NCBI GenBank assembly: GCA_964650645.1
Contig: CAZYUH010000001.1
Span: 705,202 to 754,089, forward strand
DNA from: an uncultured Candidatus Saccharibacteria bacterium
GTDB taxonomy: Bacteria > Patescibacteriota > Minisyncoccia > Phycocordibacterales > SBAW01
Length of the DNA: 48,888 bases
Direction: 5' to 3'
Both the position numbers and the translations under genes were made by a program. This document shows, in pieces, positions 8,369 through 44,466 of the stretch. The notes beneath the pieces were generated by a model that worked only from the letters and a program-made list of their open reading frames with translations, was not told the DNA's origin and searched no databases. Each line of letters starts with the position of its first letter. Position 1 is the first letter of the stretch.

Positions 8369-9661
8369 TTAAACCGTTCCTGCCTGATGATTGGGTGAAG
8401 CGACTGAAAGCAGGGCGGCGGCCGACCACGCCTGTATGCGGCACGCGCCGCCGGTGCCGTTCTGGTGCTGGTACTCGCGGAAGCCCCGCTCGTAGCCGAA
8501 CAGCTCTATGGGGGTCCTGAAATGCAGGTACGCCTGGCGCAGGGCGTCGCGCACGCGCTCGGCGTCCGCGGCGAAGCCGAAATTGTCCAGGCCGTCGGCG
8601 AGCATGGCCGTATCGTGCGGCCATATGGAGCCGTTGTGGTAGGACACCGGGTCGTAATGCGCCGAGCGGTCCGAAAGCGTGCGGATGCCCGCTTCCGGCA
8701 CGAAGAGGTCGGGCTCCATGAGCCGGTCGCGTATGCCCGCAACGTAGCGCTCCTCGAGTATCGACTCGCCCCCGTGCGTCGCCCACAGCACGTGGCCCAT
8801 GGTCGAGCGCGCCGAATCAAGGGTCTTCCCCGACCCGTCGAGCGCGTACGCGAGCGCCACCTGTCGCCCGCCTTCAAGCACGAAGGTCTCGTTGAACCGC
8901 GCCTTCAGCTCGCTCGCGCGCGACAGGTAGCGCTCGCCCAGCGCCTGGTCCACCTCGGTGTGGAGCCGGCTGAAATACTCGCCCCACACCTTAAGCGCGA
9001 CCCACGCGTACGCCTGCACCTCCACGGGCGCCAGCGGGTACGGGGGGCGCTCCGGCGAATCCTCGTAGAACACGGACTCCGTGCTGTCCATCCAGCTCTG
9101 CACCGAAAGCCCGCCGAACGTGCGCTCCGGATGGAGCGAGTAGTCGAGGAACGCGTCCCCGTTCTGGTCGCCGAGCTCCATCACCCATTTAAGCGCCGCG
9201 CGCACGCTCGGCAGGAGCGTGACGGAGAACGATTTGTCGGGGCTCAGCCGCTTGTACTCCCCCGCCGCGATGAGGAACAGGGGCGTCGAGTCAACCGAGT
9301 CGTAATTGCGCATCTCGCCGGTCGGGTAGACGAACCACGGACTCTCGGAGAGCGAGGTGAGGTGCGCGTGGTTGTCCGGCCGGAACTCGTGGACTATCTT
9401 GCCCGGCTGCTCGCCCGACTCTATCTGGTGCGAGCGCCCCTGCAGGTTGCCGAGCGTGCGCAGTATCTTCTCGGTTATGCGCAGGAAGTACTCGTCGCGC
9501 GTCCGCTCGTACGCCTTGAGGAGCCCGAGCACGGTGATGAGCGAGTCGCGCCCGAATATGCATCCGTAGGCCTCGCCGCGGCTCGAGGCGAGTATGCCCT
9601 CGCTGGTCTCAAGCTCCCGTATCGATTTGAGTCCCAGCTCCCAAAGGGCGTCCCGTTCCAT
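8369..9661 (-). CDS. Amylo-alpha-1,6-glucosidase / glycogen debranching-like (alpha/alpha)6 glycoside hydrolase
   Basis: IFGRDSLIT, EQPGKIVHE, YDSVDSTPLF, QSWMDS, SYHNGSIWPHD, PIELF, QAWSAAA. Confidence 0.85.
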   Translation of the reverse strand: MERDALWELGLKSIRELETSEGILASSRGEAYGCIFGRDSLITVLGLLKAYERTRDEYFLRITEKILRTLGNLQGRSHQIESGEQPGKIVHEFRPDNHAHLTSLSESPWFVYPTGEMRNYDSVDSTPLFLIAAGEYKRLSPDKSFSVTLLPSVRAALKWVMELGDQNGDAFLDYSLHPERTFGGLSVQSWMDSTESVFYEDSPERPPYPLAPVEVQAYAWVALKVWGEYFSRLHTEVDQALGERYLSRASELKARFNETFVLEGGRQVALAYALDGSGKTLDSARSTMGHVLWATHGGESILEERYVAGIRDRLMEPDLFVPEAGIRTLSDRSAHYDPVSYHNGSIWPHDTAMLADGLDNFGFAADAERVRDALRQAYLHFRTPIELFGYERGFREYQHQNGTGGACRIQAWSAAALLSVASPNHQAGTV

Positions 9662-18330: not shown

Positions 18331-18621
18331 TTATTCACCCTCTTTATCCTTAGGAGGCCCCCATTGCCAGCGGGGCTTCTCGCCCTTCGCGTACCCGAAG
18401 CCAAGCAGGAGCGCGCACGCGAGAAGGATGCCGAGCAGGGCCGCGCCGGGCGCGTCGTCAGCCTGCCCTATAGTGAAGCCCGCGGCGATGAGCGCGACCG
18501 CGGCGCCAACGACCAGCCACCCCTGCCATTTCACCGGAACCCAGCCCCAGCCGTACAGCTTGGCTTTGAACCAGCGGCCCTCGGGATTGTCTTTCAGATA
18601 TTGCATACAGCTTCTCATCAT
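18331..18621 (-). CDS. Small Trp-rich membrane protein
   Basis: WFKAKLYGWGWVPVKWQGW, two TM helices, GEKPRWQWG; ATGA overlap with the upstream gene. Confidence 0.65.
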   Translation of the reverse strand: MMRSCMQYLKDNPEGRWFKAKLYGWGWVPVKWQGWLVVGAAVALIAAGFTIGQADDAPGAALLGILLACALLLGFGYAKGEKPRWQWGPPKDKEGE

Positions 18622-24213: not shown

Positions 24214-26259
24214 TTACATTCTATAATTTTTCAGGAGGGTTGCGTTAATCGCCACGACCACCGTACTTACTGACATCAGTACGGCTCCTACGGCAGGAGA
24301 TAAAACAATTCCGACACCAGCGAGTACTCCCGCTGCCAGTGGCAGGGCAAGAATGTTATAACCGCTTGCCCACCAGAGATTTTGGATCATCTTTCGATAG
24401 GTAGCTTTGGCAAGAGAAAGAATTACAACCACATCTCTTGGGTCGCTTTTTACCAAGACCACATCAGCGCTTTCTATAGCCACATCGGTTCCAGCGCCGA
24501 TAGCGATGCCAACATTGGCCTGTGCAAGAGCTGGTGCGTCATTGACCCCGTCTCCGACCATCGCCACCTTATACCCTTGAGCTTGGATTTCTTTTATTTT
24601 CTCTGTCTTCTCGTGTGGCAATACCTCTGCGTAATAGGTTTTGATACCGAGCTCCTTTGAAACACGTTCTGCAACACGCTTTGCGTCCCCGGTAAGCATA
24701 ATGGGTTCAATTCCCATTGCTTGAAGTTTTTGGACCACCTCCTTTGCTTCATCGCGAACCAAATCATCAAGAGCAATAGCACCTATAGGTAATTCGTTAA
24801 CCAAAACGAACACGACAGTCCGTCCCTCATCAATCAAACGTTCAACATTTTTGTTGTTTACCGTTATGCTCTTTCCATTCAAATACCCTGGACTTACGAC
24901 TTTGATTTGTTTTCCTTCTACAGTGCCCATTGCACCTTTACCTGGTATTGAGGAGAAGTTATTTACAGCAAGCTTTTTGCTTACCCGTTCTGCTATAGCT
25001 TTGGCTATCGGATGTTCGGAGTGTGCCTCTATTGCGGCAGCATAGGCAAGGATTCGATCCTCCTGTTCATTTCCCAAGGGCACAACTTCGGTTATACCGA
25101 ACTTTCCTTTAGTAAGAGTGCCTGTCTTATCAAAGACAACAGCTGTTATATTCCGTGCTTCTTCAAAAGCGGTTCTGTTGCGTATAAGCAAGCCTTTGCG
25201 AGCAGAAAGAGCTGTTGAAACCGAAACCACAAGCGGTATAGCAAGACCGAGTGCGTGAGGACAAGCTATGACAATAACAGCAATGGTTCGCTGAAGGGCA
25301 TACGCGAGATTTTCTGACGTAAAAAATGTCCAACCAAAGAATGTAAGTATCCCTGCGCCTATCGCAACAAACGTTAGCCACATCGCTGCACGATCAGCGA
25401 GTTTCTGGGTCTTTGACTTTTCTGCCTGTGCTGATGACACAAGCTCTATAATTTGCGAAAGATATGTGTCTTTTCCTACTTTCTGTATCTCTACTACGAT
25501 TGAGCCATCACTGTTTACAGAGCCTCCAATAACGGATTGTCCAGCAAACTTTTCTATGAGCTTGGTTTCTCCTGTAAGCATTGCTTCATTTACAGAAGTT
25601 CTTCCTTCAACAACAATGCCGTCAACTGGAATCTTCTCACCAGGCTTTACAAGAACTCTATCTCCGAGGGACAGATCGGCAACCTGAACATCTTCTGTCT
25701 CTCCGTCTTTTCCTAGCCGATGTGCTGTTGAAGGCATTAGCTTTGCTAGCTCTTCCAAAGCCCGAGATGCACCCATGACCGACCGCATTTCGATCCAGTG
25801 CCCAAGAAGCATAATGTCCACGAGCGTTACCAGCTCCCACAAAAGCTCCTCGCCGGGCAGGCCCGCAAACACAGCAATGCTATATCCATAAGCGGCAGAA
25901 ATAGCCAAGGCGACGAGCGTCATCATCCCCGGCTGTCTTGCTTTTACTTCATCATATAAACCTTTGAGAAAAGGATAGCCCCCATAAAAGAAAATGATTG
26001 AGGCGAGAATAAACCGAACATATACATCTCCTGAAAAGCCGATACCCTCTATACCAAAAAACATCTGGACCATCGGCGAGAGAACAAGTACAGGAATGGA
26101 GAGAATTAGAGAAATCCAAAACTTCTTTCTGAAATCCTCAACCATATGGGCGTGATGACCTTGATGGTTGTCGTGTGAATGTTTCTCTTGGTGGCTACTG
26201 TCCGTATCAGAGCAAGAGTGATCAGCAGGAGAATGTTTGTGATGAGAAGTATCGTGCAT
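24214..26259 (-). CDS. copB: Copper-translocating P1B-type ATPase, His-rich N-terminus (CopB-like)
   Basis: His-rich N-tail, CPH, DKTGTLT, TGE-type actuator motif (MLTGE), GDGVNDAPAL, YNILA, MSVSTVVVAINA. Confidence 0.92.
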   Translation of the reverse strand: MHDTSHHKHSPADHSCSDTDSSHQEKHSHDNHQGHHAHMVEDFRKKFWISLILSIPVLVLSPMVQMFFGIEGIGFSGDVYVRFILASIIFFYGGYPFLKGLYDEVKARQPGMMTLVALAISAAYGYSIAVFAGLPGEELLWELVTLVDIMLLGHWIEMRSVMGASRALEELAKLMPSTAHRLGKDGETEDVQVADLSLGDRVLVKPGEKIPVDGIVVEGRTSVNEAMLTGETKLIEKFAGQSVIGGSVNSDGSIVVEIQKVGKDTYLSQIIELVSSAQAEKSKTQKLADRAAMWLTFVAIGAGILTFFGWTFFTSENLAYALQRTIAVIVIACPHALGLAIPLVVSVSTALSARKGLLIRNRTAFEEARNITAVVFDKTGTLTKGKFGITEVVPLGNEQEDRILAYAAAIEAHSEHPIAKAIAERVSKKLAVNNFSSIPGKGAMGTVEGKQIKVVSPGYLNGKSITVNNKNVERLIDEGRTVVFVLVNELPIGAIALDDLVRDEAKEVVQKLQAMGIEPIMLTGDAKRVAERVSKELGIKTYYAEVLPHEKTEKIKEIQAQGYKVAMVGDGVNDAPALAQANVGIAIGAGTDVAIESADVVLVKSDPRDVVVILSLAKATYRKMIQNLWWASGYNILALPLAAGVLAGVGIVLSPAVGAVLMSVSTVVVAINATLLKNYRM

Positions 26260-26263
26260 ATAG

Positions 26264-26533
26264 TTATTTGCTTTGGGCTAACTTATATACCTTAAGAATT
26301 TCATTGATTGCTTTCCCTTCTTCTTTGCCTCGCATTTGATGCACAACATGCGTAGATAAGTGATGTTCCAGCATCACATTTTCTACGCTTCCCAATGCCT
26401 TTTTGATGGCATTGGATTGAGTGATGATATCTACACAATATTTCTCGCTTTCCACCATTTGCTGTAAACCACGCACCTGACCCTCGATGCGGCGCAGACG
26501 ATTTTGCAACTGCTTTTTTATGTCTTGCTTCAT
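26264..26533 (-). CDS. csoR: CsoR/RcnR family metal-sensing repressor
   Basis: RLRRIEGQVRGLQQMV, YCVDIITQ, MLEHHLSTHV; a CsoR-type operator sits directly upstream. Confidence 0.88.
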   Translation of the reverse strand: MKQDIKKQLQNRLRRIEGQVRGLQQMVESEKYCVDIITQSNAIKKALGSVENVMLEHHLSTHVVHQMRGKEEGKAINEILKVYKLAQSK

Positions 26534-26539
26534 ATCTTA

Positions 26540-26567
26540 AGTATACCCCTGTGGGGTATACGGTCAA
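26540..26567 (-). promoter_or_regulatory. Sigma70-type promoter overlapped by a CsoR-type operator
   Basis: Perfect palindrome GTATACCCC-TGT-GGGGTATAC (26541-26561); minus strand TTGACC-N16-TATACT-N6-ATG. Confidence 0.85.
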
Positions 26568-26728
26568 GCTCAGTTTCGTTAGTTGATACTGTACCTTATT
26601 CATTCTCCTCCACAGGAACGTGTAAAAGCAAAAAGCGCCCAAACCAGGCACTTTTTACCTATAAAAACCTTCCTTAGTTAATATAAGGCTATCGACGCGT
26701 CTCGTGCGCGATAACCTATCACGAGTTG

Positions 26729-26743
26729 GCTGGGAGACATGGA
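26729..26743. repeat. att core, distal copy of the tRNA-Gln 3' end
   Basis: Identical to 31418-31432; on the minus strand it continues ...TCTCCCAG-CCA. Confidence 0.85.
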
Positions 26744-26880
26744 ACCTCACTGCTCGCTTCGCTGCGCTTACGAAACCCTCGGTTTCGTAGACTTCCGACA
26801 CGGGGAACTCCCATTCCCCGACCCCCTCCCGGTTCAAATCCATGCCGCGGGCAACCCCGTTGCCCGCTTCTCCCAGCTTC
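26744..26880 (-). other. tRNA-linked palindromic module with a split antisense copy of the tRNA-Gln 3' end
   Basis: GCTGGGAGA-A-[GCGGGCAAC GGG GTTGCCCGC]-GG-CATGGATTTGAACC, followed by further hairpins (GGGGAA/TTCCCC, TACGAAACC/GGTTTCGTA). Confidence 0.7.
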
Positions 26881-26924
26881 AGCGCTTCGTATTCTAGCTG
26901 GGTGTATGGGACGATGTTGGAACC

Positions 26925-27431
26925 TTACTTTGTGCTTAAGCCCATTACCCGAGAGTAGTATGGCAAAATCTCTTGGGCTAGAGGCGCAAGATTTACTTTA
27001 TCAGCAGATTCAGCAAAAAGTTGGAATATAGGCCACAACTCTTGGGTTAGAGTTTTTACATCCCAAACTTTACTTTTTGGAGTACCGCTTTGTCTTGAAG
27101 TGGTAAGATGACCAACTTCCTTATCAGCCCGGGTCTTTGCCTCTGTCAAAACTTCACTTAATTGCGGCCTTACTTTATCCCAGGAGTCTTCCTTGTTAAA
27201 GAAGTCTTTCGCACATACGTCAGTGTCTCTAGAAGAGGCTGGATATAGGAAAGTAATCAGATTCCGCAAGTGTATTGCGTAAGATTCAACAGGCATATGT
27301 TGCAATCCGTTAGGAACTTTAAGCCCACGAATTATTGCATCAGTACCATTGAGTAACATTTGAACCTCATACCGTACATGTTCAGAAAAGTACTCGACAA
27401 GTTGTTTTTCCGTTAGGTCTTTTGTTTTCAT
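26925..27431 (-). CDS. Hypothetical protein, HEPN-like
   Basis: ESYAIHLRNLITFL and RADKEVGH (R-x6-H); all-helical appearance. Confidence 0.6.
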   Translation of the reverse strand: MKTKDLTEKQLVEYFSEHVRYEVQMLLNGTDAIIRGLKVPNGLQHMPVESYAIHLRNLITFLYPASSRDTDVCAKDFFNKEDSWDKVRPQLSEVLTEAKTRADKEVGHLTTSRQSGTPKSKVWDVKTLTQELWPIFQLFAESADKVNLAPLAQEILPYYSRVMGLSTK

Positions 27432-27781
27432 TGCTGAAGCGTAAAATTAAGACATCCGCAACCAGATTTGCATGGTATTTCCTTATTAAAGACAGGGATA
27501 CTTTGTCCTGGTTCAATCTTAGAAAATCCTTCTTTGTGCATAAACTTGGAGTGACCACACTGGCATTGTTGTTTCAAGGACTCTAAGTATTCATCTTGCA
27601 CAGATACATCTATCTCAACTATCTTTTCATTGTTCTCGCACACTTCGTTTACACATTGAAACTTTCTTTTACCGTCAAACTTTTGAGAAGGCTCTCCTTC
27701 AAGTTTTCGCATAGCAAAAGGGCCAATTTCTCTCATTACCTCATGGCAAACTTCGCAGGGCATTTCTTTCATAAATTTCAA
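27428..27781 (-). CDS. Double zinc-finger-like small protein
   Basis: CEVC...CVNEVC and CQCGH...H...CKSGCGC; ATGA-coupled to the next gene. Confidence 0.7.
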   Translation of the reverse strand: MKFMKEMPCEVCHEVMREIGPFAMRKLEGEPSQKFDGKRKFQCVNEVCENNEKIVEIDVSVQDEYLESLKQQCQCGHSKFMHKEGFSKIEPGQSIPVFNKEIPCKSGCGCLNFTLQQ

Positions 27782-27786
27782 TAACT

Positions 27787-29019
27787 TTAGGTTAACTTTT
27801 CGAATTTACTCGAGAGACTCTTTAGGTTATCTAGCAACTCGTCAAATGTAATAAACTCTATATTCTTGAACGACCTACGCAACAATCTAAAGTCTCTCTT
27901 TTTGTTATCGTTACTCTCCCACTCTTGAGTCTTCCCTATTATTAAAAAGGCTTTTGGCTTGAGAACTGAGAATGGAACCTTAGTTTGCTTTTGTAGGTAC
28001 TTTTCGAATCCCTCAACATTTTTTTCAAGAAAGAGAATGTATTTTTCAATCTGAGAAATTGCCTGCGAAGAGCTTCTTGAAAGGAAATAGTTATCATGAC
28101 TGGTGTCTATCCTTCTCGCAAAAATTTCAGTGAATGGTGTCTTTATTTCAAACACATCCAGGAATCCATATAAATCTATCCAGACAAAATCTGGTTTTTT
28201 AGCACCTTCTTCCGTTTTGGCGAAATTAACATCTGCTTCCCTTATCGACTCAATGTAATTTGAGTTAAAGAAGAAGACTTCCTCATGCAGAAACTTTTGC
28301 CACTGTTTTTCCGAGAAGTTTCTGTTTTTGATATGTCTTTCAAACTTCTTTATCACTTGGTCAAGAGTCTTCTTTCTTCCCTCAATGACAAGGTTCTCCT
28401 GCAAATACTCCAGAACTTGGTCATTTTCTGAGTTTATAGAGATGTATCTTTTAATAAAACCAGCGACAGCCTCATGATCGTCTTTATCAAGAGTGTTTAG
28501 GTTAATCTCAGTTAATTTCTTATTTGCACTTTCGTCACTTGATGCACTCTTGAATTCGTTAGGCAAAAAACGAGCAAGACGCTCTTGCACAACAGAATCT
28601 CTTCCTTTTTTTACCTCAGTTCCAAGGTCTTCAAGTAACTCTCTAAAATCTTTAAAAGAGAGACTGAGCGAAACATACTTAGGCTGATTCTTAAAGTAAG
28701 TCGAGCCATGACCACTCATAAATACACTTAGTCTGGTTTCTTTACCAAACTTATTTTTAAGGAAATCCAAAACGTGACTTCCACCAACTTTATTGACCTG
28801 TCTCTGATTAAAACCTCCTCCTGTCTTGTATAAAAATAGTCCTACCGGCTGCTGAGAAAATCCTTTAAAAGTTATTGTCTTTATACTAAACCTTTTAGCT
28901 ACAGACGGTTTGAAGTAGTAAATGAAGTTATCGTCTTGTTTTTTCCAGCCAGCAAGAATCCTCTTAGCCCTCTTTTTGGCTTTCTTTTTTGAGGACTTCT
29001 TTTTCTTCTTGGCTACCAT
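27787..29019 (-). CDS. sduA: Shedu (SduA, DUF4263) anti-phage nuclease
   Basis: EKQWQKFL, KPDFV, VFEIKTP, SQAISQIEKY, KPKAFLIIG, FRLLRRSFKNIEFITFDELL; TATACT 6 nt upstream. Confidence 0.9.
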   Translation of the reverse strand: MVAKKKKKSSKKKAKKRAKRILAGWKKQDDNFIYYFKPSVAKRFSIKTITFKGFSQQPVGLFLYKTGGGFNQRQVNKVGGSHVLDFLKNKFGKETRLSVFMSGHGSTYFKNQPKYVSLSLSFKDFRELLEDLGTEVKKGRDSVVQERLARFLPNEFKSASSDESANKKLTEINLNTLDKDDHEAVAGFIKRYISINSENDQVLEYLQENLVIEGRKKTLDQVIKKFERHIKNRNFSEKQWQKFLHEEVFFFNSNYIESIREADVNFAKTEEGAKKPDFVWIDLYGFLDVFEIKTPFTEIFARRIDTSHDNYFLSRSSSQAISQIEKYILFLEKNVEGFEKYLQKQTKVPFSVLKPKAFLIIGKTQEWESNDNKKRDFRLLRRSFKNIEFITFDELLDNLKSLSSKFEKLT

Positions 29020-29135
29020 GCGGGTAGTATACTCTTGTTCCTGAAAACTTCATCCGCCGGCGCGGGCGGCCATCCGAGGCGCCCTGCGGAGCTTCGTGCC
29101 GCGCCTAGCGGCATGAAGGGGCGGGGCTGCCCGCG

Positions 29136-29357
29136 CTAGCTAAAGGGTCCTTTGCGGATAAGAGTCTCTGCTTCTTTTTCTGCTCCTGGCTTCCGTGTAT
29201 TTTCTTCTATCTTCTCAAGCAAATTTACTATTCGATTTTGTTTCCAGTACCAAGTAAATATCTCTCGAACTAACAAAAAACCAATGAGCCAAAGAAATAG
29301 AATCGGCCAGTTATCAAAGAAGCTAATGATTTGTCGCGGCAATTCTAGGCTGTCCAT
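29136..29357 (-). CDS. Small single-pass membrane protein
   Basis: TM helix then REIFTWYWKQNRIVNLLEKIEEN. Confidence 0.65.
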   Translation of the reverse strand: MDSLELPRQIISFFDNWPILFLWLIGFLLVREIFTWYWKQNRIVNLLEKIEENTRKPGAEKEAETLIRKGPFS

Positions 29358-29389
29358 ATCTTAAAAAGTTACAGATAAAGCCGTGGACG

Positions 29390-29530
29390 CAAAAAGCCCG
29401 CCACGGGTAGAGACCGAAGTCTCTCGTACCAGTTTCCCGATACGGCAGGTAATGCAACCCCATGACGGGTTCTTTATGCATTACCTGACTTGTCGACCTT
29501 ACCTGGGGTTGCCAGGGTTAGGCCCTTTTT
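29390..29530 (-). promoter_or_regulatory. Putative structured RNA leader / attenuator
   Basis: GAAA-loop hairpin (29425-29444), UUCG hairpin (29409-29424), closing stem CCTGCC/GGCGGG plus T-tract, and an 11-bp stem (29446-29456/29477-29487) that overlaps the closing stem. Promoter TTGAAA-N18-TATAGT at 29547-29576. Confidence 0.5.
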
Positions 29531-29719
29531 ATTCAGTTGTGGCCCCACTATACCATCAGTTTTGCCAACATTTCAAAAAGCGTTTCCGAATACAAAAAGT
29601 GCTTGCCGGGGCGGTTTATGAGCGTAAAATTGTTAGTAAGTTCTGGAATAAAAGTCCCGTAAACACGCCTCCTTCGAGGGCAGAGGCAGAACCCACATTA
29701 AAAGCTCGTCTTTTCTTTT

Positions 29720-29932
29720 GTGGTTTATTCTGCCCCTCTAATACAAGAGACTATTTTCGTCTTTCAAGAAGAAAACGGCATACTTCTCACACCCGAGGAG
29801 GCTGTTATTGTTTTGGATGGCCTTTCTGGGTTGTTTTTGGCATATGCAGACCGAGCTGAGGCGACTCCACCCGCTTTAGCGGTGGAGTCGCACTCTATAG
29901 ACTTGATACTCCACACACTTAATGCTACTTAA
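29720..29932 (+). CDS. Small protein directly upstream of the recombinase
   Basis: GTG start; LIQETIFVFQEENGILLTPEEAVIVLDGLSGLFLAY; TTGCCG-N16-TAAAAT promoter at 29603-29630. Confidence 0.55.
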   Translation: MVYSAPLIQETIFVFQEENGILLTPEEAVIVLDGLSGLFLAYADRAEATPPALAVESHSIDLILHTLNAT

Positions 29933-29969
29933 ATTTATTTACTTTTAATTTCAGTGTATTTTAGAGCTT

Positions 29970-31478
29970 ATGAAATACTTCATTTACTGCCGCAAAAGCA
30001 CTGACACGGAGGACCGGCAGGTATTGTCCCTGGACTCGCAGGAAAACGAGCTTAAACGGCTCGCAGAGGCCCAAGGGCTCAAGGTTGCGGGGGTACTTCG
30101 GGAGTCTATGTCGGCTAAGGCTATAGGCCGTCCTGTCTTTACCCAGCTCCTCAAAGCTCTATCCTCTGGTAAAGCCGATGGAATTCTCTGTTGGAAGCTA
30201 GACCGTCTCGCCCGCAACATGGTGGATGGCGGCCAAGTCATGGATTTGCTCCAAAGGGGTGTAATCAAAGAAATTCGCACTTACGAATCAACCCACCTCT
30301 CCTCCGACAATGTCCTCATGCTCGCCGTCCACTTCGGCATGGCAAATCAGTACATCCGCGACCTGAGCATAAATGTTAAGCGTGGACTTAGAGCAAAACT
30401 AGAGCGTGGCGACTGGCCCAACAAACCCCCTCTTGGATATTTCAACGACAAAAACACAAAGCAAATAGTTATAGACCCCATTTCCAGCAGATATGTCGTG
30501 CGCGCATTTGAACTCTACGCAACAGGGAGCTATGGCATAGAAGACTTGGCAGACAAACTGTACGCCGAAGGACTACGGAGCAACCGAGGAGCAAAGATTC
30601 ACAAGTCCACTCTACACAAAGTTCTTCTTCGCTCGTTCTACACAGGGGTCATGGAGCGCGACAATCGCTTTTACAAAGGCAACCATGCTCCCCTCATTTC
30701 AAAGCAACTTTACGATAAGGCCCAAACCGTACTCTCGGGCAATGCACATCCCAAGCCCCAGCGTTTGTTCTTCCCTCTCAGAGGATTCCTGAAATGCGCT
30801 TCCTGTGGCTGTGCGCTTACTGCCTCTCTCAAGAAAGGCCATCAGTATTACTATTGCACCAATGGCAAGGGTAAATGCGACCAGCACAAGAGCTACCTGC
30901 GCGAGAACACCATAAACGCTATGGTGGCTGATTTGTTCGACTCCCTGCACTTCTCTGAGCGCAAGATTGAACTTATGTATAAAGCCGCTAAGGAAAGGTC
31001 AGAGCAGGAGGGCGGCCAAGAAAGACAGAACCTAAACCGCCTCCAGAACCTCTTAAACGCCCTCTCAGAGAAAGAAAGTCGCCTGTTAGATACTTTCGTA
31101 GCCGGTCAGATTCCTAAAGAGCTTTACGACCGCAAGGCGGGCGAAATACAGCATGAACGTCTAGACCTTACCCGCCAGATTCGGGAGGCTGAAAGTAAGG
31201 GAGATGTTTCTACTTTGGAACCGACTAAGCAAGTCTTTTTACAAGCCAGTAAAGCCAAAAAAGAGTTTTTGGATGGCGATGATACTAAAAAGCGCACTAT
31301 CGTAGAAAATCTACTTTGGAACCTTTCTATCGAAAACAAATCCGTGGCTCAAACACAATATAAAAGCCCATTTCACTTACTAGCAAATATCCCTAAAAAC
31401 GCCTCACTTTCAACAATGCTGGGAGACATGGATTCGAACCATGATTCACGCCTCCAAAGGGCGCTGTCCTACCATTAG
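29970..31478 (+). CDS. Large serine recombinase (resolvase + recombinase + Zn-ribbon + coiled coil)
   Basis: YCRKST (catalytic Ser), WKLDRLARN, PPLGY, CASCG...YYYC...C. The last ~20 codons are antisense to tRNA-Gln. Confidence 0.95.
   Translation: MKYFIYCRKSTDTEDRQVLSLDSQENELKRLAEAQGLKVAGVLRESMSAKAIGRPVFTQLLKALSSGKADGILCWKLDRLARNMVDGGQVMDLLQRGVIKEIRTYESTHLSSDNVLMLAVHFGMANQYIRDLSINVKRGLRAKLERGDWPNKPPLGYFNDKNTKQIVIDPISSRYVVRAFELYATGSYGIEDLADKLYAEGLRSNRGAKIHKSTLHKVLLRSFYTGVMERDNRFYKGNHAPLISKQLYDKAQTVLSGNAHPKPQRLFFPLRGFLKCASCGCALTASLKKGHQYYYCTNGKGKCDQHKSYLRENTINAMVADLFDSLHFSERKIELMYKAAKERSEQEGGQERQNLNRLQNLLNALSEKESRLLDTFVAGQIPKELYDRKAGEIQHERLDLTRQIREAESKGDVSTLEPTKQVFLQASKAKKEFLDGDDTKKRTIVENLLWNLSIENKSVAQTQYKSPFHLLANIPKNASLSTMLGDMDSNHDSRLQRALSYH
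31418..31432. repeat. att core, tRNA-proximal copy
   Basis: GCTGGGAGACATGGA inside the tRNA-Gln 3' half and the recombinase 3' end. Confidence 0.85.
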
Positions 31479-31489
31479 ACGATCTCCCA
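31419..31489 (-). tRNA. tRNA-Gln (TTG)
   Basis: TGGGAGA/TCTCCCA acceptor, GCGCC-CT-TTG-GA-GGCGT anticodon arm, GGTTCGAATCC T-arm; CCA not encoded. Confidence 0.95.
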
Positions 31490-31537
31490 ATACGGTGAGG
31501 ATAGCAGGAAAACGGCCTTTTTGCATGGCAAGAGAAA

Positions 31538-31559
31538 GCCCCGCGGTACTCCGCGGGGC
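31538..31559 (-). terminator. Putative terminator
   Basis: GCCCCGCGG-(4 nt)-CCGCGGGGC followed by TTTCTCTT on the minus strand, downstream of the 31569 stop. Confidence 0.55.
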
Positions 31560-31568
31560 GCTGGCGCC

Positions 31569-32087
31569 CTATATCCAGCACAGGAGCTTGTTGGAATCAG
31601 CGAGGATGTGGTTCGGCTCGAAGACGAACACCCACGCGTCATGGGCGCGCCGCGCCGTTTCCAGCAATTCATGGAGCTCGTCATGCCGGGCGAACCGCAG
31701 CGGGGCGCACGGATCCTCCTCTACGGCGATATCCTTTCCGTTCAGGGCCGCATGCCCGAGCCTGTCGAGCGCGGTTTCAGCTAGGCGCGCCTTTGCTCGC
31801 GCGCACTTGCGCCCGAGCATCCTTCTGTGCCGCGCCATGCGCCAACGGCGCAAAAACCACGCACGGCCCGATTCGCGGCATTCATACTGAAGATAATCCT
31901 CGAACGCGTCTTTCCCGGCTACGGCTTCCATAGCCCGCGCCGTTATCTCCCCGCCGGCATCGACGATCCTTACGACCTGCTTGATGCGCATGTCGTCCTT
32001 GGCGCGGGCCAGCGCTTCCCAGAGGACGCTCGCCGTATCCCGGGCCTTATAAAGAAAGAACTCAAGCTGCACGATATTCCCAGGCAC
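31569..32087 (-). CDS. Hypothetical protein
   Basis: GTG start with AGGAGG SD; fills the interval between dnaX and tRNA-Gln; no motif recognised. Confidence 0.5.
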   Translation of the reverse strand: MPGNIVQLEFFLYKARDTASVLWEALARAKDDMRIKQVVRIVDAGGEITARAMEAVAGKDAFEDYLQYECRESGRAWFLRRWRMARHRRMLGRKCARAKARLAETALDRLGHAALNGKDIAVEEDPCAPLRFARHDELHELLETARRAHDAWVFVFEPNHILADSNKLLCWI

Positions 32088-44148: not shown

Positions 44149-44229
44149 GCCGGAGTGGCGTAATGGTAGCCGCGCTCGACTCAAAATCGAGTCCCGCAAG
44201 GGGTGTGGGTTCAAGTCCCACCTCCGGCA
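44149..44229 (+). tRNA. tRNA-Leu (CAA)
   Basis: GCCGGAG/CTCCGGC acceptor, CTCGA-CT-CAA-AA-TCGAG, long variable arm, GGTTCAAGTCC; CCA not encoded. Confidence 0.95.
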
Positions 44230-44466
44230 CAGAGGGTAGCGATGTGCCGGAGAAGGCCATGCCGGTGCATGGCCTGCGGGAGGCTTGAAGGGCGGAGCGA
44301 TGTTTTGCACTTGCAAAACCGCGAGCCGGGGATGAAAGGCAAACTGCTTTGCCTTTCATCCGGTGCCGAAGGCAAGCGCCGATGCCGCCTTGCGGCAGGC
44401 GCTAGGTGGACGCGGCGCTTGGCTGGCGAGCAGGGCCGACTTGTGGTCAAGTCCCACCTCCGGCAC
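44211..44466 (+). mobile_element. 236-bp non-coding mini-element duplicating the tRNA-Leu 3' end
   Basis: TCAAGTCCCACCTCCGGCAC at 44211-44230 and 44447-44466 flanks a hairpin-rich insert. Confidence 0.7.

Follow-up and report, generated by a model that had tools for sequence, protein, structure and literature searches.

A probable tRNA-linked-repeat-type unit outside a serine-recombinase island at tRNA-Gln in an uncultured Candidatus Saccharibacteria bacterium

Introduction

With reference to earlier work, the closest described systems are the tRNA-linked repeats (TLRs) of Escherichia coli, also known as rttR and as the Rfam family RtT (RF00391), which have been on record since 1978 (Egan & Landy 1978 and Rudd 1999, as cited in PMC8144298). 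E. coli carries 22 of these repeats, which are spread over ten loci (one to five each) behind tRNA or rRNA genes; over their last 18-19 nucleotides (nt) they repeat the 3' terminus of the preceding RNA exactly, and most of them have no known function (PMC8144298). In this study, we investigated a module in the 3' flank of a tRNA-Gln gene within a stretch of 48,888 nt (the window) from an uncultured Candidatus Saccharibacteria bacterium (contig CAZYUH010000001.1). A preliminary description, made from the letters of this stretch, had presented the module as the end of a genomic island and as a candidate for an undescribed component of tRNA-targeting serine-recombinase elements, such as a guide-like or bridge-like RNA.

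We observed that the module (26729-26877) lies outside the island, and we regard it, with a probability of roughly 60%, as a chromosomal, non-coding and structured unit of the tRNA-linked-repeat type in the 3' flank of tRNA-Gln. Its anatomy, its place beyond the island, its recurrence in other loci, the match of its ends to the tRNA, the covariation of its P3 stem, the strand bias of its fold and its RtT-like architecture are established below. The tRNA-linked-repeat architecture had until now been described in enterobacteria only, where it has stayed unexplained for more than 40 years; here it is found in a distant phylum with reduced genomes, and with at least four core families. Since one core is conserved in at least 120 environmental loci, there is comparative power, through covariation as well as gain and loss among close relatives, to test the role of the units.

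Anatomy of the module

Read on the minus strand from 26877 to 26729, the module consists of GCTGGGAGA, an A, a 9-bp hairpin, GG, CATGGATTTGAACC, about 75 nt of hairpins, the box GCGAGCAG-TGAGGT and TCCATGTCTCCCAGC, followed by CAA (Table 1). This agrees with the layout reported earlier, namely 9/9 positions antisense to the acceptor strand and 13/14 to the T arm, a hairpin between these two parts, and a direct repeat of 15 nt at the far end. The word GCTGGGAGA occurs three times in the window against 0.46 expected, and three or more occurrences were obtained in none of 100 shuffles; the first lies in the module (26869-26877, minus strand), and the other two are the complement of both copies of the tRNA end. 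The 3' arm (X) pairs with the two parts of the 5' arm (X'a and X'b) and closes the unit, with 9 + 7 bp at tRNA-Gln and 9 + about 8 bp in a twin at tRNA-Leu. The complement of the acceptor 3' strand is the 5' acceptor strand of the tRNA, and CATGG is the 5' strand of the T stem, so that both stems of the neighbouring tRNA, the acceptor stem and beneath it the T stem on which it stacks, are rebuilt by the two ends of the module. The X arm is followed by CA, and CCA is therefore encoded. In folding against shuffled sequence, z was -4.2 for the Gln module and -6.8 for the Leu module, with the ends pairing together in both.

A hairpin at the same acceptor/T-stem junction, within 2 nt, was also noticed in the Leu unit of the window and in L010, L041, L074, L079 and L202 (L numbers denote loci used for comparison). 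This insert is optional, as it is absent from L056 and from the tRNA-Gln unit of L054, in which the antisense segment runs over 17-23 contiguous bases. The arms enclose a conserved core, termed family B, which scores 72.2 bits (E = 5e-16) in the Gln module with R1, a covariance model of this core. The box GCGAGCAG is present in both the Gln and the Leu module, as had been pointed out, but this 8-mer, with 11 occurrences in the window where 4.8 are expected, is weak evidence alone; GAGCAGUGAGAU was also detected in a subset of family-B copies (L107, L117, L187, L189, L191-L193 and L198). The window holds three tRNA genes, tRNA-Gln(UUG), tRNA-Leu(CAA) and tRNA-Trp. No call on the units was made by ARAGORN or by the Rfam models of tRNA and transfer-messenger RNA (tmRNA); at gathering thresholds, Rfam reported only tRNAs and the LOOT RNA across the whole window, and a permissive Rfam search of 26000-32000 and of 20 module loci returned no family matching the module.

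The second unit, at tRNA-Leu, has the same order of parts, in line with the preliminary description: X'a at 44244-44252, a hairpin, X'b and a repeat of 20 nt. Relatives of this locus were found with ParB as the anchor (ParB identity of 83% in L202, 80% in L203 and 79% in L204). In L202, a unit of the same type follows tRNA-Leu, with a core about 90% identical to that of the window; in L203 and L204, tRNA-Leu is present and the unit is absent. The antisense T arm of L202 fits its own tRNA-Leu at 12/12 positions. The corresponding arm in the window, GGGAGGCTTGAA, which had been called a degenerate antisense T arm, is antisense indeed, with 11/12 positions fitting the tRNA-Leu T arm of the relatives, but it does not fit the tRNA-Leu of the window, whose T stem has since changed, and the 3' repeat changed along with the tRNA. 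It follows from the comparison with L202 that the repeat tracks the tRNA and that the antisense arm can lag. In L202 (2744-2990), the block of tRNA-Leu and unit is also inverted relative to parB when compared with the window (44149-44466), and both genes between this block and miaA are gone; the tRNA-Leu flank is a rearrangement hot spot.

Position relative to the recombinase island

The P arm of the right attachment site (attR) of the island sits between the last island gene and the module, which places the module outside the island. The module is not enclosed by the left and right attachment sites (attL and attR), being separated from attR by a spacer of 19 nt. What had been read as the island end is accordingly beyond it, and the P arm at 26897-26924 is the true end. 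The spacer, TAGAATACGAAGCGCTGAA, would represent the original 3' trailer of tRNA-Gln and, with it, the B' side of the attachment site attB used by the recombinase.

The recombinase family has 3,603 homologues in Patescibacteria at E < 1e-20, from which 79 related loci (L001-L079, 1.17 Mb in all) were retrieved. In about 65 of the 79, the recombinase frame stops inside a tRNA gene that lies on the other strand, and the tRNA types concerned are Gln, Ser, Leu, Tyr, Trp, Gly, Pro, Lys, Ile and Val. The P-arm site, GGTTCCAAC-N5-CCA(T/A)AC...-CAGC/CCGC/GCAC (also written GTTCCAAC-N5-CCAnAC...CAGC), was recognized in 38 of 65 related recombinase loci, and for finding the far end of an island it served far better than an exact 14-mer search, which found 13 loci only. 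This arm mimics the T loop of the tRNA (GGTTCGAA) with five extra bases and stands farther from the crossover; its acceptor-like part is constant among elements residing in tRNA-Gln genes with differing acceptor stems, and it shares only about its last 4 nt with the host tRNA. Because only these last bases match, the crossover must be located at the outermost 3' bases of the tRNA. For this very large serine-recombinase family of Patescibacteria, which targets tRNAs, the logic of the attachment sites is thereby defined, with the crossover at tRNA positions ~72-74. P-arm sites are often stacked in two to four copies (L001, L012, L027 and L045), which are repeated integrations at one tRNA followed by decay.

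The independence of module and recombinase was also observed across the loci. Among the 38 islands with an identifiable attR, a unit comes after about 10 and is missing after about 28, with L026, L035, L048 and L067 among the examples of clean-ended islands lacking the module; several islands bounded by exact repeats are without a unit. The module directly follows a tRNA without a recombinase in L027 (Gly), L054 (Thr, Met), L056 (Leu, Tyr, Trp), L075 (Tyr), L077 (Thr) and L079 (Leu), as well as at tRNA-Leu of the window, and more than 55 units have no recombinase nearby. Counted by direct repeat, units directly 3' of a tRNA without a recombinase follow 7 of 137 tRNAs, and an antisense copy of the T arm lies downstream of 12 of the 137 and upstream of none. 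In L075, an island has a copy of the module on either side, the two being nearly identical. The palindrome in the TTCGAA loop does not account for the antisense reading, since the loops TTCGATT and TCCGATT, which are not palindromic, appear as AATCGAA and AATCGGA (L027, L028, L077 and L202). A scan of a viral collection with the family-B motif gave no matches, and the family-D motif, that of the Leu unit, gave a single match by chance in GC-rich coding DNA without a tRNA. A literature search on Patescibacterial serine recombinases with tRNA or guide found nothing relevant. The proposal that the module is a component of tRNA-targeting serine-recombinase elements is not upheld by these results, and a false lead is removed, as nothing at the Gln locus indicates a serine recombinase that is RNA-guided or specially armed.

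For the Gln locus, relatives were sought with CsoR as the anchor. In the closest relative, L206 (94% identical), homology with the window resumes exactly past the repeat, at the junction ...AG/CCAACTCG. No direct empty site was found among the CsoR relatives, and L206 lacks tRNA-Gln at this place.

Table 1. Coordinates of the two units, the island and associated features in the window
Feature	Position	Strand	Remarks
X'a, 5' arm part a	26869..26877	-	GCTGGGAGA; 9/9 antisense to tRNA-Gln acceptor 3' strand, discriminator and C74
Hairpin, 9 bp	26847..26867	-	GCGGGCAAC GGG GTTGCCCGC; exactly at the acceptor/T-stem junction
Bases flanking the hairpin	A at 26868; GG at 26845-26846	-	
X'b, 5' arm part b	26831..26844	-	CATGGATTTGAACC; 13/14 antisense to tRNA-Gln T-stem 3' strand and T loop
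Conserved core, family B	26758..26833	-	GGGGUC[GGGGAA..UUCCCC]GUGnnGGAA, then hairpin topped AACCGnGGGUU
Candidate pseudoknot bases	26791-26794 (UCGG), 26771-26774 (CCGA)		
3' box	26744..26757	-	GCGAGCAG-UGAGGU; immediately 5' of the tRNA-end copy
X, 3' arm	26729..26743	-	TCCATGTCTCCCAGC; exact 15-nt direct repeat of tRNA-Gln 3' end, 15/15
Spacer, 19 nt	26878..26896	-	TAGAATACGAAGCGCTGAA; comparable to the 13-nt spacer of the Leu unit
tRNA-Gln(UUG)	31418..31489	-	tRNA matched by the module
tRNA-Leu(CAA)	44149..44230	+	partner of the second unit
Second unit, family-D core	44244..44466	+	begins 13 nt after tRNA-Leu; three-hairpin interior
Leu-unit X'a	44244-44252	+	GTGCCGGAG
Leu-unit hairpin	44254-44275	+	AGGCCATGC/GCATGGCCT
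Leu-unit X'b	44276-44289	+	GCGGGAGGCTTGAA
Leu-unit GCGAGCAG box	44426-44433	+	
Leu-unit X repeat	44447-44466	+	20/20 direct repeat of tRNA-Leu 44211-44230
attR P arm of island	26897..26924	-	GGTTCCAACATCGTCCCATACACCCAGC; directly past the last island gene, before the module
Inferred attB	tRNA-Gln 3' end + TAGAATACGAAGCG...		
Inferred attP	P arm 26897-26924 + P' side ~31380-31421		
Large serine recombinase gene	29970..31478	+	502 amino acids; Resolvase, Recombinase and Zn-ribbon domains
Shedu defence gene	27787-29019	-	SduA C-terminal domain, E = 2e-28; island cargo
Two small open reading frames	26925-27431, 27428-27781		island cargo
LOOT RNA	29409-29524	-	Rfam RF03000

Distribution, diversity and structure of the units

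A pattern scan for family B (GGGGTCGGGGAA...TTCCCCGTG plus a hairpin topped AACCGnGGGTT) disclosed the core in at least 120 metagenome loci; the layout recurs in other loci and is not confined to this genome. For the counts of tRNA linkage, here and in the discussion, we used 116 copies with enough flank among the matches listed. Of the 116, 45 have a tRNA gene of their own strand no more than 160 nt upstream, and 16 amino-acid types are represented (Arg, Leu, Gly, Thr, Gln, Ser, Glu, Pro, Val, Asn, Trp, Ala, Met, Tyr, Asp and Ile). Within these 45, an exact antisense match of at least 8 nt was detected in 37 and a direct repeat of at least 10 nt in 32. Over the 13 nt that are specific to each tRNA, the direct repeat was identical at a median of 13/13 positions, against 5.2 for non-cognate tRNAs, and the own tRNA ranked in the best 10% for the antisense arm in 18 of the 45 copies (Wilcoxon p = 0.0017), which supports the matching of the arms to the neighbouring tRNA, as first proposed. 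Most family-B arms span the T loop and T stem only. Tandem arrays were noticed in L113, L176, L177 and L187, two or more units occur in L075 as well, and the window has single units. The neighbours of family-B copies are housekeeping genes, such as those of ribosomal proteins, EF-Tu, Mur ligases and tRNA synthetases, and no recurrent recombinase, transposase or reverse transcriptase was found among 148 neighbouring proteins.

The P3 stem covaries across 82 distinct hairpins; at pair 3, for example, AT was recorded 23 times, GC 22, CG 18 and TA 13, and 78 of the 82 hairpins are paired at this position. These pairs were counted with the AACC/GGUU anchors, as RNAalifold on the alignment of the core (A2) missed the P3 hairpin through register shifts. 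In 15 of 16 units, the fold of the tRNA strand is more stable than that of the complementary strand, and G-U pairs number 51 as compared with 27, which suggests that the structure is read on this strand, most simply as RNA. Inspection by eye of the same alignment also suggests a pseudoknot between the junction and the P3 loop, in which the variable bases of GUG-NN-GGA would go with the base after CCG in the loop (UC/A, GU/C, AA/U).

Covariance model R1, the building of which had been proposed as a check, recovers the Gln unit well but not the Leu unit: in the window it finds the Gln unit only, and in the 1.17 Mb of recombinase loci one other (at tRNA-Thr of L054). That it finds so few units indicates that the layout is common to several unrelated cores, designated A to D, with the Leu unit as D.

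Two further observations concern family-B loci. In both units of L113 and in the second unit of L177, which are unrelated metagenome contigs, a TTTTTCGAAGTCTCTCTTCGTCAGCGAAGTGAGACTTCATAATATGTATT repeat interrupts the core just past ...TTCCCCGTG and looks like a miniature insertion element that landed inside the units. In L090, Rfam recognizes a group I intron (1508-1703; 52 bits) a short way 5' of a family-B unit with tRNA-derived-looking arms; ARAGORN has probably missed a tRNA gene here that contains an intron.

Comparison with tRNA-linked repeats and other known systems

The units resemble the TLRs and RtT in several respects. They lie directly 3' of a tRNA gene on the same strand, at 13 nt for the Leu unit and at 19 nt for the Gln unit once the island (26897-31417) is removed; they are 100-230 nt long; their 3' end copies the end of the tRNA, over 15-24 nt here as compared with 18-19 nt in E. 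coli; a 5' segment pairs with this copy and closes the unit; they occur as one to five units in tandem; and they share small hairpins of the GCGAAGC type and a 3' box of the form ...GCGCAGCG..UGAG..AUCC. In the tyrT-tyrV-rttR region of E. coli, each 178-nt unit has GGGGAAGGAT, which is antisense to ATCCTTCCCC of the terminal tRNA-Tyr copy, and the Rfam RtT consensus pairs the same two segments (GgGaaGG.A with U.CCuuCcC). With the same end architecture on record in E. coli, the module is no longer an undescribed type. The differences are that the core here reads GGGGUC-P2-GUG...AACCGnGGGUU, that the antisense arm can reach across the entire acceptor strand and be divided in two by a hairpin where the acceptor and T parts meet, that several unrelated core families (A-D) exist with many copies not linked to tRNAs, and that the hosts are Patescibacteria rather than Enterobacteria.

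As for homology, the RtT model (RF00391), which recovers all four E. coli units as a control, gave no match at E <= 10 over 26000-32000 and none at E <= 1 in 20 module loci, and model R1 gave no match at the E. coli TLR locus. All architectural features of RtT were thus found and homology was not, so the units are not classed as RtT members; by their layout they are distant and far more numerous relatives of this old repeat class.

Other known systems share single features with the units. The small RNAs rrA, rrB and rrF of E. coli are likewise units between two terminators downstream of a stable RNA gene, and they end in an 18-nt copy of that RNA's 3' end, but they follow 5S rRNA and bind Hfq and CsrA via GGA motifs (PMC8144298). 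Cis-mobilizable elements (CIMEs) and other remnants of attachment sites have direct repeats of the tRNA 3' end at their bounds, no recombinase gene, a tandem arrangement with an autonomous island and a variable presence, as is the case here; however, a parental element is known for none of our units, which have covarying stems, a strand-biased structure and a 5' complement of the repeat that CIMEs lack. The bridge (seek) RNA of IS110/IS1111 elements is also a structured non-coding RNA of ~150-200 nt with a segment complementary to the insertion target, but our units lack a second, donor-binding loop and do not lie at the end of a transposase-bearing element; no IS110-family (DEDD) recombinase was detected in the island of the window or among the 148 neighbouring proteins. 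In MALAT1-mascRNA, tRNA punctuation and the tRNA-like domain of tmRNA, the two ends of a larger RNA mimic the acceptor and T stem and the rest emerges from the body, as here, but the units have no T-loop or D-loop elbow, and their discriminator is paired. Finally, the primer-binding sites of retroviruses and long-terminal-repeat retrotransposons are complementary to the tRNA 3'-terminal ~18 nt, covering the acceptor and T-stem 3' strands; in contrast to these, the units have no complement of CCA, their match follows the gene sequence including C74 and the trailer, and no reverse transcriptase is nearby.

Discussion

In the history that we favour, the order before the island arrived would have been tRNA-Gln, the 19-nt spacer and the module, just as tRNA-Leu, 13 nt and a module stand at 44149-44466, and the island would later have entered the extreme 3' end of tRNA-Gln and displaced the module by 4.5 kb. 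The end of the unit copies the tRNA from the T loop to the discriminator and C74, its start is the complement of this copy, and the closing helix formed by both ends corresponds to the two stacked stems of the tRNA, acceptor and T. The 9-bp hairpin occupies the junction where the D arm, the anticodon arm and the variable region leave a real tRNA, and the conserved core RNA emerges at the position that a T loop would have. We suppose that the unit is transcribed on the tRNA strand, mostly as a continuation from the tRNA gene, and that the tRNA-like end helix may act as an end-defining and stabilizing signal for the nucleases that process tRNA and rRNA ends; such processing would free a stable RNA of ~150 nt, whose core probably binds a protein or another RNA. 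In the gap from tRNA-Leu to its unit, and likewise immediately 5' of the Gln unit, we found no site resembling a promoter or a terminator; together with the strand bias of the fold, this would be in keeping with co-transcription with the tRNA and processing to a discrete RNA.

Several points weigh against this interpretation. In many loci, including L079, L041, L056 and L175, a terminator-like palindrome lies between the tRNA and the unit, and read-through would have to be partial there. The closing helix pairs the discriminator and has no T-loop elbow, so it is not a canonical substrate of RNase P or RNase Z. Of the copies of family B, about half lie away from tRNAs and have arbitrary arms; for these, our exact-substring search for closing helices was too coarse. 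At the Leu locus, the antisense T arm fits the tRNA of the relatives and not its own, and pairing is therefore not strictly maintained. The empty-site reconstruction at tRNA-Gln is drawn by analogy with the Leu locus and with L144, L175, L185 and L200. Furthermore, the likeness between the E. coli and the Patescibacterial units is architectural and may be due to convergence.

The main rival, which we consider possible but rather unlikely, is that each unit is a miniature non-autonomous integrative element similar to a CIME, or the decayed stump of one, brought into the tRNA 3' end by site-specific recombination with a crossover in the T loop, acting at the DNA level and having no role as RNA. 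The direct repeat would then be the core of the attachment site and the internal structure would represent former arm sites. The units are indeed flanked by direct repeats of the tRNA 3' end, which measure 15-24 nt and in every case begin in the T loop and reach the last bases of the tRNA, and repeats of this extent are the classic footprint of integrases that target tRNA T loops. The variability at tRNA-Leu (a unit in the window and L202, none in L203 and L204), the break of homology to L206 exactly at the repeat end, and the nearly identical tandem copies in L075, L176 and L177 would fit as well. However, no integrase or other recombinase is recurrently nearby, and no full-length element with such ends was found in the 79 recombinase loci and two viral-collection scans, other element types not having been searched. 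The spacing at the 3' end of the unit is of the attB type and not of the attP type for the local recombinase family, covarying stems and a better fold on one strand are needless for protein-binding sites on DNA, and about half of the copies are not at tRNAs.

Less likely than such an element is a purely mutational origin, in which replication template switching at a terminator hairpin and unequal crossing-over duplicated the tRNA 3' end in inverted and direct form and left the unit as a functionless by-product; we hold this to be improbable. Quasi-palindrome correction is a known mutational process, the 3' half of the tRNA, a terminator-like hairpin and the antisense arm do form a continuous long palindrome in many loci, including L079, L041, L056, L104 and L096, and direct repeats favour tandem amplification. 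What such a process leaves unexplained is a conserved core with covarying stems in at least 120 loci, the recurrent hairpin at the acceptor/T-stem junction and the strand bias.

We give still less credence to two bolder ideas that go beyond the tRNA-linked-repeat interpretation. In the first, the units and the E. coli TLRs would be a family of mobile sequences free of protein genes and with a guide arm: pairing of the arm with the 3' end of a stable RNA would direct an enzyme in trans, or templated copying, to place the unit, the target end would be duplicated in the process, and the colonization of nearly every tRNA type by the units would be explained. In the second, the RNA would be a mimic of the tRNA acceptor and T stem, and the released RNA would gain CCA or bind tRNA-handling proteins and so serve as a decoy or sensor.

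A programmable guide, in which the 5' arm as RNA or single-stranded DNA would steer a trans-acting recombinase or transposase to the matching tRNA 3' end, is likewise less likely than the miniature element, and we rate it as very improbable. The complementarity of the arms to neighbouring tRNAs of 16 amino-acid types, with a significant cognate preference, speaks for it, as does the antisense arm being sometimes better kept than the direct repeat (L079, the tRNA-Tyr unit of L056 and L041), and the unit size of 110-230 nt is similar to that of known guide RNAs of mobile elements. Nevertheless, the unit lies outside the island, does not co-occur with the recombinase and has no other candidate enzyme nearby; its single complementarity is to the target, with none to a donor, and it follows the genomic sequence including the trailer and C74 rather than a defined core dinucleotide. 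Most family-B arms cover only the near-universal T loop and T stem, the arm of the Leu unit lags behind the change of its tRNA, which weighs against a working guide, and no use of guides is known for large serine recombinases. We found no evidence for the guide-like or bridge-like RNA that the preliminary description had envisaged.

Further candidates were rejected: a retron RNA (no reverse transcriptase), an integron attC or CTX-type folded single-strand site (no cognate recombinase, and about half of the copies off tRNAs), a self-cleaving ribozyme of known kind (no Rfam match), a T-box (no anticodon specifier) and a convergent RNA from the opposite strand (the strand test favoured the tRNA strand by 15 to 1).

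Additional features of the island

Beyond its attachment sites, the island carries the cargo listed in Table 1. The reading frame of the recombinase crosses attL, and its last ~19 codons are antisense to tRNA-Gln (31418-31478), as compared with 7 codons in relatives of 490 amino acids. Because the frame runs across attL, the C-terminus of the protein must differ between the integrated and the excised state, a pattern seen in about 65 of the 79 loci. The LOOT RNA was present in four of nine islands examined; apart from the window, it was found in L001 (8536-8648), L007 (4870-4985) and L017, the last with three copies (8739-8851, 763-883 and 18397-18510), with scores of 72-83 bits. It stands 0.45-1.4 kb upstream of the recombinase gene in divergent orientation, and is a non-coding RNA physically linked to these recombinase islands.

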